A DNA stretch of 64,000 nucleotides from positions 1 to 64,000 of IMG/VR virus record IMGVR_UViG_3300021431_000081; one strand, 5' to 3'. Position numbers and translations under genes: made by a program. Under the pieces are notes generated by a model. That model searched no databases. It saw only the letters and a list, made by a program, of their open reading frames with translations, and was not told where the DNA came from. The DNA is from a virus (taxonomy: Duplodnaviria > Caudoviricetes). Shown one piece after another: positions 1 to 8,434 of this stretch. Numbering within the stretch: position 1 is the first letter of the stretch; each line of letters begins with the position of its first letter.

Positions 1-432
1 AAAAAACCAAAAAAATCGACAGCTAAAACAAAAACTGAATTGAAAGATGGCATGTCTGAAGAAGAGTATGCTAAGAAAAAGCAGTTTTTTGATTATCTTA
101 AAGAAATAGCAGATGAGGAACATTTATCTGTTAAGCAAGTAGCCGTTGCAGAAAAATATATAGAGCGTTATAATTTTACTTATGAAGGAATGTATCAAAC
201 ATTAGTTTATATGAATGAAATAATTCATAAAGATTTAACTGGAGATGTTGTTGGTATCATTCCTTATTATTATTCCGAAGCAATGCATTTTCAAGAAGAG
301 TTAGATGATTTAGAAAAGGTTGGAAAAGATTTTTCTTTTAGAGGAAAATATAAAACAAAAATTGTAAAGACTAATACAATGCATCGTAGAAAAAACTATC
401 AGCCAATGGATGTGCTGAGTATAGGAGAGTAA
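1..432 (+). CDS. 5'-truncated replication-module protein, resembles SPbeta YorH-like proteins found before the helicase
   Basis: Frame is open from base 1 (KKPKKSTAKTKTELKDG...). The GDVVGIIPYYYSEA motif recalls YorH-like proteins (from memory). Confidence 0.5.
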   Translation, partial: KKPKKSTAKTKTELKDGMSEEEYAKKKQFFDYLKEIADEEHLSVKQVAVAEKYIERYNFTYEGMYQTLVYMNEIIHKDLTGDVVGIIPYYYSEAMHFQEELDDLEKVGKDFSFRGKYKTKIVKTNTMHRRKNYQPMDVLSIGE

Positions 433-433
433 G

Positions 434-628
434 ATGATAGTACCATATATGGATAGTTTGAATTTTGAGATTTATGTTGGAGATCTGATAGAAGCGTTGA
501 AACCTAAATCAGAAGAAGAGATTGAACATATGGCAGATGAATTACATCAGTCATTGGAAATTGCGATTTCTGATTTTATTGATGATAGCGAGAAATTTGA
601 TTTAGATAATTATCATCCACTGTATTGA
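434..628 (+). CDS. hypothetical acidic protein
   Basis: 64-aa ORF with an AGGAG RBS, tightly packed after the previous gene. Confidence 0.7.
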   Translation: MIVPYMDSLNFEIYVGDLIEALKPKSEEEIEHMADELHQSLEIAISDFIDDSEKFDLDNYHPLY

Positions 629-645
629 CGAAAGGATAAATAACT

Positions 646-1242
646 ATGAATATGAATAATATGTTTAACGGAATGTTTGGCAAAATTGCTCCAGGAATGT
701 GCAGACTTAGTATGAGTGGTAAGATCGCTGTTAAAACCAGTAATGGTTATAAGAGTTATGATATGAAGACAGGCAGACTTACTAATCAGGATAGCTTTGT
801 ATTTGATATTGGCGAAGATTTCTTCTTTGTCATCCCTACAAACAATGTAAAGGCAGGGGACATTATTTTGGTAGGTGGATCTCCTAAATGTGTGGTAGAA
901 GCACAGAAAAACAAGATCACTGTCATTGATTATGAAGAGGGATCTATTAAAGATATCCTACCCGAACGTCATGTGTTTATGGGTAATACATACTTCTACG
1001 GCAAAATCGTTTCTCTGTTTGGCGATAATTTCACTAAGTCGAAGAATGGTATGAACAACATCATGAAGTATATGATGATGTCCCAGATGATGAATGGCAA
1101 TGGCGGTATGAGTAATATGAGTCAGATGCTTCCATTTATGATGATGGGTGGCGGGAATTTCTCTGAGATGTTTGATGATATGTTTGATTTTGATGGTCTG
1201 AGCATGGATGCAGAAGATTCTGAGGAGGTGGAAGACGAATGA
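646..1242 (+). CDS. Met-rich hypothetical protein
   Basis: 198 aa with Met/Asn/Gly-rich termini (MNMNNMFNGMFG; MKYMMMSQMMNGNGGMSNMSQMLPFMMMGGG) and an AAGGA RBS. Confidence 0.8.
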   Translation: MNMNNMFNGMFGKIAPGMCRLSMSGKIAVKTSNGYKSYDMKTGRLTNQDSFVFDIGEDFFFVIPTNNVKAGDIILVGGSPKCVVEAQKNKITVIDYEEGSIKDILPERHVFMGNTYFYGKIVSLFGDNFTKSKNGMNNIMKYMMMSQMMNGNGGMSNMSQMLPFMMMGGGNFSEMFDDMFDFDGLSMDAEDSEEVEDE

Positions 1243-1418
1243 GACTTTTTGGATTTGGAGATAAGGTGAAAGAACAGCTTACTGGATATGTAGGAAAGGT
1301 AACTGGTATTGCAGAGTATTGCACAGGTACAATACAGTATCTGGTAGAGGGTATGGATAATACAGGAAGACCAACGGAATTTTGGTACGATGAAAGAAGA
1401 TTGGAGAGTGCTGAATAA
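1239..1418 (+). CDS. small SH3/KOW-like beta-barrel protein (not in ORF track)
   Basis: Translated by hand as MRLFGFGDKVKEQLTGYVGKVTGIAEYCTGTIQYLVEGMDNTGRPTEFWYDERRLESAE*. It has a GGAGGTG RBS, an ATGA overlap upstream and a TAATG overlap downstream. Confidence 0.75.
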   Translation: MRLFGFGDKVKEQLTGYVGKVTGIAEYCTGTIQYLVEGMDNTGRPTEFWYDERRLESAE

Positions 1419-2299
1419 TGGGTGGAGGATCTTGGACAAGAAGTAGTTTTGTAAATTATACAGCATCTACTAAGGCGGGAGCAACAGTAGATAGTCTTGG
1501 TAGTGTTGTTGGTGTCAGTTCTACGCAGGATATTTATAAACAGCATACTATTAATAAGATGCTTGTACCATACAAAGTGATGCGTGAGTGTCTGGATAGT
1601 GACGAACATCCTGAAACAAAGCCAGTACTGCTTGCACTTGATGTTACTGGTAGTATGGGAGATGCAGCAACTGAGGCTTCCAAACAGTTGAATATAATTA
1701 TGGAAGATCTGTATAAGACACTGAAGGATGTAGAATTTTGTGTCATGGGTATTGGAGATCTGGTCTGTGACCGTTATCCAATTCAGATCAGCCAGTTTGA
1801 ATCAGACATCCGTATTGCTGATCAGATGGAGAAGATTTACTTTGAATTCGGTGGCGGTGGCAATATGTATGAGTCATACACTGCTGCCTGGTATATGGGT
1901 GTGAGACATACGAAACTGGATTGTTGGAAGCGAGGACAGAAAGGTATTCTGATCACTATTGGTGATGAATTTCTGAATCCTTATCTTCCCATGGAGAAAC
2001 TGAATGCAGATACTGGTGATACGGTACAGGAGGATGTAGATACTAAAGGGTTATATGCAGAGGTATCTGAGAAATATGATGTTTATCATATTCATGTAAA
2101 TCATTTGAAGGATTATTCTTCCAGATATAGCTATACAAATGTTAAATCCACTTTTGCTAAAGTGATTGGAGATCAGAATATTATGTGTTGTGAAGATGTA
2201 AAAGATCTTCCTAAAATGATTACGGATCTGATTATCAGCCATTATACTGGGAGCGGTAATAATGGAGTTAAAGTAACTGACGAAGGTATCAGTTGGTAG
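1418..2299 (+). CDS. vWA (von Willebrand A) domain protein
   Basis: MIDAS-like LALDVTGSM, plus GIGD, GGGGNxxESY and ITIGDE motifs. Confidence 0.85.
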   Translation: MGGGSWTRSSFVNYTASTKAGATVDSLGSVVGVSSTQDIYKQHTINKMLVPYKVMRECLDSDEHPETKPVLLALDVTGSMGDAATEASKQLNIIMEDLYKTLKDVEFCVMGIGDLVCDRYPIQISQFESDIRIADQMEKIYFEFGGGGNMYESYTAAWYMGVRHTKLDCWKRGQKGILITIGDEFLNPYLPMEKLNADTGDTVQEDVDTKGLYAEVSEKYDVYHIHVNHLKDYSSRYSYTNVKSTFAKVIGDQNIMCCEDVKDLPKMITDLIISHYTGSGNNGVKVTDEGISW

Positions 2300-2317
2300 A
2301 ATAGGAGAAGAGACAGT

Positions 2318-3451
2318 ATGAGCATTGAAGCGAAGGTTATAATTGGTAGTTCGGCAGGTGATGAAGGAAAAGGATTGGCGGTAGATTATTATGCCCATCA
2401 GGCTAATCTAAAAGGGCATAAGACGCTTGTTGTACTTAACAATGGTGGTCCGCAGCATGCTCATACTGTTTCTTTAACGGATGGAACTAAACATATTTTT
2501 CGTCATGTAGGTTCTGGTACTTTTGCAGGAGCGGATACATATTTATCAGCATGGTTTTTAGTTAATCCTATTTTCTTTGCAGAAGAACATAAGAAATTAA
2601 AAGCTATGGGATATAATCCTGTTATCTATGTAGATGAAAGATGCAGAATTACCACTCCATATGAAATGATCTTGAATCAAATAGTGGAGCAATCCAGAGG
2701 TAAAAATCGTCATGGTAGTTGCGGTATGGGCATCTGGGAAACGGTAAAGTTGTACGACAGATATGTAATGAGAGCATGGGAAGATTATGCTTATCTTACA
2801 TCCAGAAAGAGTCTGATTGAAGAGCGTAAAGATCTGTTTCGTAGAAATTTTAGTCAGTATTTGAACGCTAATGAGATTACAGATGAAGTATGGAGTGAAT
2901 GGCAGCTACTTGTACAGGATGAAAAGCTGTATCAACGTTACTTAGAAGATCTGGATTACATGTATAAGAATACTATTGTATGTGATTCAGAAATCATAAA
3001 TCATTATGATGAAGTGATATTTGAAAATGGTCAGGGATTATTACTTAATGATGATCCTAACAATGTACATACCACTCCCAGTAATACAGGATTGGATAAT
3101 ATTCGTGTATTGGAACAGTTACATGATTTCTATGCAGAACCAGTATATGTTACCAGAACCTACTTAACCAGACATGGTGCTGATCCCGCTTTTATTGAAA
3201 ATAAGAGTTTGAGATTTAGCGATGAAACAAATATTCCCAATCCTTTTCAGGGTGCAATTCGTTACGGGAATCTGGATATGGGATTGATTCGAAGAATTGA
3301 GAAAGATTCTTATGACAGAGATTATGGCATTCTGGTAACTCATACCAATGAGATGATCTTACCTGAATATATAAAAGACAGTATACATAGTAATGTTTTG
3401 TATTCGTGTGGAAAAGAGCGGGAATCAGTAGGTGATAAAGATGTCTTATGA
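2318..3451 (+). CDS. divergent adenylosuccinate synthetase (PurA)-like protein
   Basis: Motifs GDEGKG, GGPQHAHT, HGSCGMGI, FENGQGLLL, TTPSNTG, YLTRHG and IRYGNLD occur in PurA order. Confidence 0.85.
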   Translation: MSIEAKVIIGSSAGDEGKGLAVDYYAHQANLKGHKTLVVLNNGGPQHAHTVSLTDGTKHIFRHVGSGTFAGADTYLSAWFLVNPIFFAEEHKKLKAMGYNPVIYVDERCRITTPYEMILNQIVEQSRGKNRHGSCGMGIWETVKLYDRYVMRAWEDYAYLTSRKSLIEERKDLFRRNFSQYLNANEITDEVWSEWQLLVQDEKLYQRYLEDLDYMYKNTIVCDSEIINHYDEVIFENGQGLLLNDDPNNVHTTPSNTGLDNIRVLEQLHDFYAEPVYVTRTYLTRHGADPAFIENKSLRFSDETNIPNPFQGAIRYGNLDMGLIRRIEKDSYDRDYGILVTHTNEMILPEYIKDSIHSNVLYSCGKERESVGDKDVL

Positions 3452-5126
3452 AAAACTCGTAGATAAACGAGCATATCTAAATGTAATAGGGTGCTTATTA
3501 CAAGAGCCAACCCTGATTGATGATATGGATCGCCCCTTGGATAGGTCTGATTTTAAAACAGAGGATTTCTATGAGTTACTTTTTGTAGCTATCTATAATC
3601 TGTATATCCAAGGGTGTGAAAAGATTGATGAATTTGCAATTGATTCATATCTTTCTAACTATCAAAAGCAGTATAAAATCTTTCAAGATAATCATGGTCT
3701 GGACTATTTGGTTAATGCGAGGGAGATTGCCAGTCTTGAAAACTATGATTATTTTTACCATAGAATGCGTAAGTTCTCTTTGCTTCGTTATTATGAAAAT
3801 AGAGGACTAGATGTTCGTAGATTAGTATATAACTATGATTTGATAGAAGAAAAAGCCGTTGAAGAAGAAAATCAAAAATTTGATAAGTATACTGAAAAAG
3901 ATATCGTAGATATTGTAGACTCAGAATTGGTAATTCAGCCAAAGATGGAGTATTGTTCTGAATTACTTACTTATAGTATTCAGGCAGGAAAAGGTATGCT
4001 TGAATTGGTAGATAAGCTATTAGAGACTCCTGATTTTGGATGGTCTTTTGCAAGTGTAGGATTCAATTCAGTATGCCGTGGTGCTAGGCGGGGAAAGTTC
4101 TATTTACGGTCAGCTGCGACCGGGACCGGGAAGTCAAGGTTCTTTCTTATGGACGCCTGTAACTTTGCAGTACCGTATAGATATGATGATAAGAAGAAAG
4201 AATTTGTTTATACAGGACATAATACTCCAACATTATATATAGGTACTGAAGGGTCTCTTCAAGAATTTCAGACAATTGTATTAGCTGCAGTATCTGGTGT
4301 AGATGAAGAGCATATACTAAGTGGCGATTATTGTAAAGGCGAGATAGAAAGAGTAAAACAAGCGGTCCAATATATTGCAGAGAGTCCTTTATATCTTGTT
4401 TATTGTGATGATTATTCCATTACAGATATCGAAAATATTGCCAAAAGGTATGTACTTACATATCATGTAGACATTTTTATTTTTGATTATCTTCAGTCTA
4501 GTCTTAAATTAATGTCTGAGATTGCAGGAAAAACATCCGTAAGAATGCAGGAATGGCAGTTACTTCTTATTTTTAGTACGAGAATGAAAGCATTAGCAGA
4601 ACGCTTAGATATTTTTATCTTATCAGGTACACAGTTATCTGCTGAAGCAACAGATGCTAGATACAAAGATCATACATTATTACAGGGTTCTAAAGCCATT
4701 GCAAATAAAATTGATATTGGTGTTATTATATCGATTCCTAATGCAGTGGAGAAGAAGAAAATTGAAGCAATCACAAGATATAAGATAGGTATTCCTGAAA
4801 TTAATCTTTTACAATGGTGTTATAAAGTACGTCAGGGTAAATTATCTAGAATTATTATTTGTAGCAATATGGATAAAGGTACTATGCGAATCAAAGATTG
4901 TTTTGCTGTTGATTTTGATTTCAAATATGTAGAAATTGATTTTTCTAATACAGATACAGAGGAAGTTGAAAAAATTATAAAAGAAAATTCTGTAAGTATC
5001 AATTCTATTAAAGAAGATCTGATACAAAAAGAAGCGGCCCAGACAGAAGAAATAATAGACATGGAAGATACTCTGGAAGATTCTATAGTAGAAAAAACAA
5101 TAATCAATGAAAAACTAATTTTTTAG
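3441..5126 (+). CDS. dnaB: replicative DnaB-like DNA helicase
   Basis: Walker A AATGTGKS, catalytic TE, FIFDYLQ, GTQLS and GSKAIANKID motifs. Start reassigned to ATG 3441 after the AGGTGA RBS. Confidence 0.9.
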   Translation: MSYEKLVDKRAYLNVIGCLLQEPTLIDDMDRPLDRSDFKTEDFYELLFVAIYNLYIQGCEKIDEFAIDSYLSNYQKQYKIFQDNHGLDYLVNAREIASLENYDYFYHRMRKFSLLRYYENRGLDVRRLVYNYDLIEEKAVEEENQKFDKYTEKDIVDIVDSELVIQPKMEYCSELLTYSIQAGKGMLELVDKLLETPDFGWSFASVGFNSVCRGARRGKFYLRSAATGTGKSRFFLMDACNFAVPYRYDDKKKEFVYTGHNTPTLYIGTEGSLQEFQTIVLAAVSGVDEEHILSGDYCKGEIERVKQAVQYIAESPLYLVYCDDYSITDIENIAKRYVLTYHVDIFIFDYLQSSLKLMSEIAGKTSVRMQEWQLLLIFSTRMKALAERLDIFILSGTQLSAEATDARYKDHTLLQGSKAIANKIDIGVIISIPNAVEKKKIEAITRYKIGIPEINLLQWCYKVRQGKLSRIIICSNMDKGTMRIKDCFAVDFDFKYVEIDFSNTDTEEVEKIIKENSVSINSIKEDLIQKEAAQTEEIIDMEDTLEDSIVEKTIINEKLIF

Positions 5127-7713: not shown

Positions 7714-7887
7714 ATGTCTAAGAAACATCCCGGTAAAGATACTGAATTTGCAACATTTAAAAGAATTATGAAAAAGATGGAATATCAATTAAGGGAAGAA
7801 CATGAAGAAGAGCGTAAAAAGAGTCATGATATGAATCCAAGAAATTGGAAAAAGAAAAAGCGTGAGGAGGAAGATGATTATGAATAA
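7714..7887 (+). CDS. small charged hypothetical protein (not in ORF track)
   Basis: MSKKHPGKDTEFATFKRIMKKMEYQLREEHEEERKKSHDMNPRNWKKKKREEEDDYE*, with an AAGGAG RBS. Confidence 0.65.
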   Translation: MSKKHPGKDTEFATFKRIMKKMEYQLREEHEEERKKSHDMNPRNWKKKKREEEDDYE

Positions 7888-8434
7888 GGATGAACGAATT
7901 CAACAGTTTAAAGAATTTATTCTACGAGATCCTGGAGTTGGTAAAAGGATTACTCCTGAAGTGATTCAATGGCTTGATGATCATGGATATTTTACAGCAC
8001 CTGCTAGTACAAAATATCACGGTGCATATGAAGGCGGGCTATTTGAACATTCTATGAATGTAACAAAGGTACTTGTAAGTCTTACGAAGGACTGTCAGTT
8101 GGAATGGGAAAGGTCTTCCAGTCCTTATATTATTGGTCTGTTTCATGATTTGTGTAAGATTGATAATTATGTAAGTGAAGGTTTGTCAGTTGCGCTGATT
8201 TATAAATATAACACAGAAACTCTTCTTAAAGGGCATGGTGATAAATCTGTTATGCTTCTTTCCAATCTTATGCAATTGAACATGGAAGAGATTTTGTGTA
8301 TCAGATATCATATGGGAGCATTCACCGAAAAAGAAGAATGGGCTGACTATACCAGAGCCATTCATACATGTCCAAATGTATTATGGGTACATCAAGCTGA
8401 TATGATCGCTACACATATTTGGGAGGTGGATTGA
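7880..8434 (+). CDS. HD-domain phosphohydrolase (YhaM-like HD)
   Basis: APASTKYHGAYEGGLFEHS, FHDLCK, GHG, RYHMG and HQAD motifs. Confidence 0.85.
   Translation: MNKDERIQQFKEFILRDPGVGKRITPEVIQWLDDHGYFTAPASTKYHGAYEGGLFEHSMNVTKVLVSLTKDCQLEWERSSSPYIIGLFHDLCKIDNYVSEGLSVALIYKYNTETLLKGHGDKSVMLLSNLMQLNMEEILCIRYHMGAFTEKEEWADYTRAIHTCPNVLWVHQADMIATHIWEVD

Follow-up and report, generated by a model that had tools for sequence, protein, structure and literature searches.

A vWA-linked branch of the adenylosuccinate-synthetase superfamily in a putatively mobile gene cassette of gut phages and Clostridia

Results

A three-gene cassette with a PurA-like ligase gene

To our knowledge, the adenylosuccinate-synthetase superfamily serves two functions: synthesis of AMP (PurA) and of the Z base, 2-aminoadenine (PurZ). 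Here we analyze a divergent PurA-like gene and its partner genes in the window, by which we mean a 64,000-nucleotide stretch of Caudoviricetes DNA (positions 1 to 64,000 of the IMG/VR record IMGVR_UViG_3300021431_000081, which is 155.8 kb long and rated complete by CheckV). Three genes on the plus strand form the core of the element: one for a methionine-rich (Met-rich) protein (646–1242; an open reading frame, or ORF, of 198 aa), one for a protein resembling von Willebrand factor A (vWA) domains with a metal-ion-dependent adhesion site (MIDAS) motif (1418–2299; 293 aa), and one for a PurA-fold ligase (2318–3451; 377 aa). A small plus-strand ORF of 59 aa (1239–1418) lies between the first two and is a lineage-specific insertion. 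The Met-rich gene meets this ORF in an ATGA overlap at 1239–1242, the ORF meets the vWA-like gene in a TAATG overlap at 1414–1420, and the 18-nt intergenic gap that follows (2300–2317) holds the ribosome-binding site of the PurA-like gene, AGGAGAAG, as read from the sequence. The original prediction had described four tightly coupled genes here; its ORFs and junctions are present at the positions given, as are the motifs that it quoted from the PurA-like protein (GDEGKG, HAHT, DETNIPNPFQGAIR and THTN), but the conserved cassette proved to be the trio of Met-rich, vWA-like and PurA-like genes, the small ORF being found only in near-identical kin.

Conservation and mobility of the trio

We surveyed 163 loci—80 from IMG/VR (viral loci), 80 from GTDB genomes (genome loci) and 3 from sequenced phages—with the window copy as the reference for identity figures; 159 of these loci include DNA 5′ of the PurA-like gene. 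In all 159, a vWA homologue lies immediately 5′ of the PurA-like gene and reads in the same direction, and the full collinear order of Met-rich, vWA-like and PurA-like genes is present in 141 of the 163. The vWA and PurA-like pair, with the same family motifs, also occurs in one Vibrio, one Rhizobium and one Mycobacterium (cluster C) phage. In the Rhizobium and Mycobacterium phages, the gene directly 5′ of the PurA-like gene encodes a protein 31–33% identical to the window's vWA-like protein; in the Vibrio phage, a vWA homologue within the same identity range stands one small ORF away from the PurA-like gene. The pair of the Rhizobium phage has genes for a phosphoribosyltransferase-like protein and a cytidyltransferase nearby; in the Mycobacterium phage, a kinase gene takes the position held elsewhere by the Met-rich gene. 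A vWA linkage that is not conserved had been named beforehand as part of what would refute the original prediction; in the loci surveyed, the linkage is conserved.

The surroundings of the trio, by contrast, are not. The window's flanking genes are common to only 4 of the 80 viral loci and differ in 76, which argues that the trio moves as a cassette, in keeping with the earlier proposal of an inserted module. The three genes evolve at different rates: the Met-rich protein is the most conserved (median identity to the window of 67% in viral and 58% in genome loci), the vWA-like protein follows (52 and 53%), and the PurA-like protein is the fastest-evolving of the trio (40 and 39%).

Five viral loci (L027, L029, L041, L069 and L083) carry an insert of ∼1 kb between the vWA and PurA-like genes (about 4915–5995 in L027). 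Separately, a 715-aa protein (P0393) was considered as a candidate vWA–PurA-like fusion, its residues 1–203 matching the vWA-like protein, its residues 321–705 matching the PurA-like protein and its middle part matching neither; this sequence was found once, on a contig of 4.2 kb, and as it is probably a frameshifted read-through and not a true fusion, we did not use it as Rosetta-stone evidence.

A PurA fold with remodeled substrate pockets

The AlphaFold model of the PurA-like protein, built on 22 family members (pLDDT 79.9, pTM 0.86), shows an adenylosuccinate-synthetase fold. Foldseek returned 43 matches to this model at E ≤ 0.001, and those listed at ranks 1–42 are all PurA or PurZ structures, with the best match to 4m9d (TMq 0.74) and PurZ structures lower; beyond PurA, the next fold matches are the SRP54/FtsY GTPases. 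The Pfam family PF00709 also matches the protein (6e-28, above the Pfam cut-off), covering only residues 7–294 of the 377.

The reference set for a residue-by-residue comparison of the family comprised Salmonella PurA (in Escherichia coli numbering), the PurA of five hosts and five sequences of PurZ/PurZ0. The four motifs lie at residues 14 (GDEGKG), 47 (HAHT), 302 (DETNIPNPFQGAIR) and 341 (THTN) of the window's protein. Residues D15, H49 and Q239, which align with Asp13, His41 and Gln224 of Salmonella PurA, are invariant in 22 diverse members of the family, and the early observation that the catalytic Asp and His are kept is confirmed. Also kept are the P-loop, the GGxxxxHT context of His41, the ExxQG context of the base-contacting Gln224, and the C-terminal Ser414 position.

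Around this retained core, other positions have changed, and the set of IMP 5′-phosphate ligands is altered in part. Of these ligands, Asn38 is Gln in most members and Thr129 is an invariant Cys within the motif HGSCGMG; Arg143, which reaches the same phosphate from the partner subunit, has no conserved equivalent, and the 139–147 segment contains no conserved Arg. Val273 is an invariant His. In the L-aspartate loop, Thr300, Thr301, Arg303 and Arg305 are all lost: the window reads DETNIPNPFQGAIR, and the family motif DxTNxxNxxQGxxR is invariant. A remodeled aspartate loop had been claimed from the window's sequence, and the claim holds for the whole family, in which none of the four residues is conserved, whereas PurZ keeps them. 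The companion claim of an altered guanine motif stands only in part. The TKLD motif with its Asp333 reads THTN in the window and THxN in most members, but the Asp333 position can be N, D or R, and the Rhizobium and Mycobacterium phage members keep Asp; since the replacement is not uniform, a common switch of nucleoside triphosphate (NTP) is unproven. Together with TRHG, the motifs HGSCGMG and DxTNxxNxxQGxxR are the invariant motifs specific to the family.

Inteins with a homing endonuclease are present in three PurA-like relatives of 795–831 aa (P0391, P0392 and P0394). Alignment, made for P0391, places the intein directly after the catalytic His and ahead of the Thr that follows it (GGAQRGH/C...HN/TV, slashes marking the ends of the intein), and an intein at the catalytic His motif fits a constrained active site. 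The contigs that bear these genes measure 342 kb (P0392), 224 kb (P0394) and 16 kb (P0391).

Placement relative to PurA and PurZ

Family models separate the window's protein from both known enzymes. It scores 73.5 bits against the PurA equivalog TIGR00184 (cut-off 395.55), 72.6 bits against NF002223 (cut-off 402) and 18.9 bits against the PurZ model NF038379 (cut-off 300). In a quick maximum-likelihood tree of 40 rows, all 29 vWA-linked sequences fall on one side (SH-aLRT 99) and PurA, PurZ and PurZ0 fall on the other; the tree has long branches, samples PurA thinly and includes none from archaea. The phylogeny that the original prediction had called for thus agrees with the NCBIfam scores in setting the family apart from PurZ and PurZ0. 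Public records label its relatives adenylosuccinate synthase, and the PHROGs label for the family is “2-aminooxy adenylosuccinate synthetase.”

Compared with PurA (EC 6.3.4.4; PDB 1ADE/1CG0; Bacillus anthracis 4M9D), the PurA-like protein is alike in its fold over the whole length (the TMq of 0.74 given above) and in its catalytic residues. It differs in being shorter (377 vs. ∼430 aa), in reading DxTNxxNxxQGxxR for TTGRxRR and THxN for TKLD, in the substitutions Asn38 to Gln, Thr129 to Cys and Val273 to His, and in always being encoded with a vWA-like partner. All five isolate host genomes with the cassette that were checked also hold a full canonical PurA.

PurZ and PurZ0 (PDB 7ODX, 6FM1, 7VF6) are alike in a different respect, namely as phage-encoded, shortened PurA homologues with an altered purine-NTP motif. 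Their pattern of change, however, is the reverse of that seen here: PurZ has Ser at position 13 (GSTGKG or GSEAKG), keeps its aspartate loop (TTxTxxxRR) and still uses aspartate, and its clade, phage hosts and partner genes are unlike those of the PurA-like family. The substitution of Asp13 by Ser defines PurZ and was found in all 147 phage sequences studied, and the companion genes of PurZ are DatZ, MazZ, DpoZ, or DutZ with DmtZ (PMC12884076). In the window, an HD-domain protein encoded 3′ of the replication genes (7862–8434) shows no significant similarity to S-2L DatZ, the one PurZ companion that was searched for. Among sequenced-phage records, 201 carry PurZ and 228 carry the PurA-like family, and the host make-ups of the two sets differ. 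Judged by these comparisons, the PurA-like protein belongs to a third, vWA-linked branch of the adenylosuccinate-synthetase superfamily, and its cassette probably serves neither ordinary AMP synthesis nor the Z base.

The vWA-like protein and its predicted complex with the PurA-like protein

The vWA-like protein is marked by the motifs RExxDSxEHP, DVTGSM, QFESD, GGGGNxxESY and TIGDE and by an invariant N-terminal Met-Gly. A MIDAS-type pattern, read from sequence alone, occurs in the expected order (D75-V-T-G-S79, G145-GGGNxxES, T180-IGDE) and is conserved in 31 sequences. The protein matches phrog_2971 (1e-58), and 1387 cluster representatives (at 50% identity) match it at E ≤ 0.001. Neither NCBIfam nor PADLOC gave a match. 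Among named clusters of the ESM Atlas, VWA_4 or VWA come closest (0.83–0.84), which we treat as a lead only.

The C-terminus of the vWA-like protein consists of a variable linker and then a conserved, short hydrophobic-aromatic tail (...GISW in the window; ...VEF or ...VYF in distant members). This aromatic tail looks like a docking peptide.

In structure prediction, the PurA-like and vWA-like proteins paired with a score of 0.51, compared with 0.26 for the best of three controls; at least 34% of the contacts agreed between runs, and the partner pLDDT was at least 70. In our benchmark, 58 of 80 solved complexes attained this mark, as did 2 of 110 mismatched pairs; with a score ≤ 0.60, only 7 of the 80 solved complexes attained it, along with both of the mismatches.

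The Met-rich protein and the small ORF

Met makes up 12% of the Met-rich protein, and 16 of the last 71 residues are Met. The architecture comprises a conserved N-terminal region of ∼130 aa, a Met/Gly/Asn-rich linker, an MFDxMFDFD motif and an acidic tail. Its AlphaFold model is of low confidence (pLDDT 45.9), and the secondary structure of the N-terminal region is uncertain. Database searches returned 4670 matching clusters, none of them with a Pfam family, and the ESM Atlas returned unnamed viral clusters only. Among 208 ORFs of the Vibrio and Rhizobium phages, the two best profile matches to the Met-rich family, with scores that are weak and composition-biased, are Met-rich genes 5′ of the vWA gene; the Vibrio analogue adjoins the vWA gene, the Rhizobium analogue is next but one with a 105-aa ORF between, and both have the architecture seen in the window.

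We considered the Met-rich protein as a single-stranded DNA-binding protein (SSB), its N-terminal domain, Gly/Met-rich linker and acidic, Phe-containing tail being superficially SSB-like. PF00436, the common SSB family, finds no match in the 155.8-kb phage genome. We nevertheless set the SSB reading aside because the Met-rich analogues travel with the vWA and PurA-like pair in the unrelated Vibrio and Rhizobium phages and in the cellular operon.

The 59-aa ORF had been called SH3-like at first, a label that no family name supports; it has weak PHROG matches to families without an assigned function. Among the 160 collection loci, it occurs only in L004 and L005, which are 95–98% identical kin of the window, and we therefore regard it as an insertion and not a member of the cassette. 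Its only other phage relatives are hypothetical proteins, so annotated, of Rhodobacter phages of 37–42 kb.

A cellular operon with an NrtR-family regulator gene

The module appears to be of cellular origin, a point that, like its NrtR-family regulator, is missing from the original prediction. The genome loci belong overwhelmingly to Lachnospiraceae, Ruminococcus and Eubacterium. A gene of the NrtR family (NUDIX plus NrtR_WHD) lies within the flank in 65 of the 80 genome loci, being immediately adjacent and co-directional in 48 of them, and in 0 of the 80 viral loci. The classic ligand of the NrtR family is ADP-ribose, a breakdown product of NAD. Isolates that carry the operon include Lachnospiraceae NE2001 and AC2031 and Eubacterium ruminantium FB3002. 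The neighbors of the operon in NE2001 encode an ABC transporter, a two-component system, a methyltransferase and a TetR regulator, and to judge from these genes the setting is cellular and not a prophage.

A strong TTGACA promoter stands 5′ of the cellular operons, with the palindrome TATTATC-N5-GATAATA in the spacer between its -35 and -10 elements (L116:6200–6420, L117, L145 and 20 others). Of the 80 genome loci, 23 have the palindrome 5′ of the trio; none of the 80 viral loci does. The palindrome looks like an operator, here a candidate one, of the NrtR-like repressor. In the window, the search for this operator gave one match with two mismatches, which is not above chance. In three isolate genomes, perfect copies are confined to the operon locus, with two or three upstream and one before nrtR; the regulator therefore looks dedicated to the trio operon, and membership in an NAD regulon is not shown. 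A wider NrtR regulon was considered and rejected, the one-mismatch sites elsewhere in these three genomes lying mostly inside genes and so being chance-like.

Some bacterial loci hold variable genes between the PurA-like gene and nrtR (L117:9298–13191; L130:4670–8320; L109:11008–11589; L122:9249–9818). Their products are a 1297-aa STAND-like NTPase with weak AAA_16/NPHP3_N matches, Pro/Gln/Gly-rich proteins and DUF6630 proteins. The DUF6630 proteins begin MGLFNMFG, and the Met-rich protein begins MNMNNMFNGMFGK.

Genomic surroundings and occurrence

In the window, the trio is located within the replication module: a DnaB-type helicase gene lies 3′ of the PurA-like gene and is followed by a primase gene. 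The helicase most likely starts at the ATG at 3441, with AGGTGA six bases 5′ of it, and would overlap the PurA-like gene by 11 nt, such that the trio is translationally packed against the replication genes. On the other side, the gene at 40–432 had been called YorH-like; it matched only phrog_4680, a family without an assigned function.

No sequenced phage matched the first 20 kb of the window in a megablast search. The phage and relatives of ∼90% identity were seen in animal-gut metagenomes from several studies, some labeled bovine gut (window positions 400–3600, public runs), and these sequencing-run searches gave only fragmentary contigs. One bovine-gut RNA-Seq library held short pieces of the Met-rich, vWA and PurA-like genes of relatives, which is no proof of transcription.

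Discussion

With slightly more confidence than doubt, we read the trio as a mobile three-gene module in which a PurA-fold ligase would join a 6-oxopurine nucleotide to a nucleophile other than aspartate, acting with its vWA partner, and of which the cellular form would be held under an NrtR-family repressor. With an NTP, the enzyme would phosphorylate a purine nucleotide, or a close analogue, at its 6-oxo group, and a non-aspartate nucleophile would then attack the activated carbon. The vWA protein would bind the enzyme as its obligate partner and would either present the second substrate or itself be that substrate, and the slowly evolving Met-rich protein may be an adaptor, in the place where mycobacteriophage versions have a kinase-like protein. 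The product would be an unusual purine nucleotide or conjugate, and neither AMP nor a precursor of the Z base. The phage copy, being without repressor and operator, would be expressed with the replication genes, and phages may use it to re-tune a host circuit that responds to nucleotide or ADP-ribose-related stress during infection. NARP1 (Adps and Namat) and NARP2 (Nampt and Nmnat) may share this theme, by context, as phage-carried genes tied to ADP-ribose/NAD stress. Their enzyme family and chemistry are unlike those of the PurA-like cassette, however, and the NAPRTase/Nampt family PF04095, the one searched for among these pathways, has no match in the phage genome.

Several points weigh against this reading. 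The enzyme's substrate, its nucleophile and its product are each something that we infer from sequence. The mapping of the aspartate loop comes from MAFFT, hhalign and the secondary structure of the model, and could be off by a few residues, the loop having a pLDDT of 56–71; the Asp333 position, which varies between N, D and R, yields no single NTP prediction. The vWA fold assignment is putative: at E ≤ 0.05, none of the 31 members is matched by a Pfam VWA family, and searching the PDB sequences with a profile gave nothing at E ≤ 1; the vWA label therefore rests on motifs and a weak Atlas lead. The complex prediction, in turn, supports an association of the PurA-like and vWA-like proteins only weakly. 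Counts of co-occurrence within the trio are not all independent, much of the collection being drawn from related Clostridia phages and bacteria. Finally, NrtR-family regulators can sense ligands besides ADP-ribose, and the 155.8-kb phage genome has no NUDIX, no NAPRTase (PF04095) and no protein kinase (PF00069) match, so that any link to NAD or ADP-ribose rests on the cellular relatives only.

It seems unlikely to us that the protein is instead a pseudoenzyme or NTP-driven switch, in which NTP binding and hydrolysis would control the assembly of the vWA and Met-rich proteins, as in SIMIBI-class GTPases, without any ligation. Such a switch is suggested by the remodeling of both co-substrate sites and the loss of the Arg143 equivalent, by the PurA-like protein being the fastest-evolving of the trio (40% median identity vs. 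52 and 67%), by the SRP54/FtsY GTPases as the fold matches that follow PurA, and by partners that appear adaptor-like (a MIDAS motif, low-complexity Met-rich segments and an acidic tail). Yet Asp13, His41 and Gln224, which are needed only for purine chemistry, are invariant across 22 members, the replacement loops are likewise invariant where decay might have been seen, and inteins sit in the catalytic His motif. A role in counter-defense or repair is distinctly unlikely. Here the enzyme would restore the amino group of (d)IMP or of some other deaminated form of an adenine nucleotide, the donor perhaps being ammonia or a similarly simple compound, and would thereby reverse deaminase-based defenses like RADAR or Kongming and avert the ensuing NAD+ depletion; the 6-oxopurine activation machinery is indeed retained, the cellular relatives stand under a regulator of the family whose classic ligand is ADP-ribose, and the pair of the Rhizobium phage lies near phosphoribosyltransferase-like and cytidyltransferase genes. 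Kongming, for its part, makes its dITP signal from dAMP and ends in NAD+ depletion (bioRxiv 10.1101/2024.12.20.629578). The phage countermeasure in that paper is, however, a dNMP phosphatase, and no PurA relative is mentioned (bioRxiv 10.1101/2024.12.20.629578); moreover, counter-defense leaves the vWA and Met-rich proteins without a role, agrees poorly, if pure, with a regulated cellular operon beside an ABC transporter and a two-component system, and finds no PADLOC match.

More conventional enzymology fares worse. The PurA-like gene could be an ordinary auxiliary metabolic gene, for a working adenylosuccinate synthetase that raises the AMP supply for phage replication; the public annotation of relatives, the PF00709 match above the Pfam cut-off and the location beside helicase and primase genes would all suit this. 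We consider it very unlikely, given that the four aspartate-loop residues, Thr129 and Arg143 are all missing, that the equivalog score is 73.5 bits against a cut-off of 395.55, and that the family forms a separate clade; in addition, the five isolate host genomes checked already have canonical PurA, and AMP synthesis does not need the invariable coupling to a vWA protein. To a PurZ-type enzyme making 2-aminoadenine DNA, we give hardly any weight. It would explain a phage-encoded PurA homologue near replication genes and the PHROGs label, but it is already refuted on sequence criteria: Asp13 is kept where PurZ has Ser in all 147 phage sequences (PMC12884076), the NF038379 score is 18.9 bits against 300, PurZ and PurZ0 group with PurA on the far side of the tree, the neighboring HD protein is unlike DatZ, and the host make-ups of the 201 PurZ records and the 228 of the PurA-like family differ.

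A more specific form of our preferred reading, of a ligase with a non-aspartate nucleophile, is that the enzyme releases no free metabolite but joins C6 of the 6-oxopurine nucleotide to the alpha-amino group of the invariant N-terminal glycine of the vWA protein, exposed once Met is removed, and that the conjugate acts as a switch or signal. This version is rather unlikely as it stands; if true, it would be a protein–nucleotide conjugate of a kind not described before, part of a circuit that bacteria gate with a Nudix-type sensor and that phages run without the gate.

We found no published description of a vWA-linked PurA-like family in the literature searched (PurA-like/phage, adenylosuccinate/vWA, NrtR/adenylosuccinate, Kongming). 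A 2026 survey of 481 viral PurA homologues sorted out PurZ and canonical PurA and left the remainder without discussion. The present analysis adds the form of the cassette that has a Met-rich gene, the operon of Lachnospiraceae together with its operator, the way in which the aspartate loop differs from that of PurZ, and the site of the intein.

If the ligase reading is true, these proteins constitute a third branch of the superfamily, and a very large one, with different substrate pockets and an obligate protein partner, which public annotation currently names adenylosuccinate synthase or PurZ. The family is found in 228 sequenced phages and in up to ∼3,800 protein clusters, a figure that may include some canonical PurA, and its cassette is common both in phages of dominant gut and rumen Clostridia and in gut bacteria. 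As isolates carrying the operon and a defined operator exist, the question is directly testable. The cassette points to an unrecognized nucleotide product or modification that would be used by both sides of the phage–host conflict.

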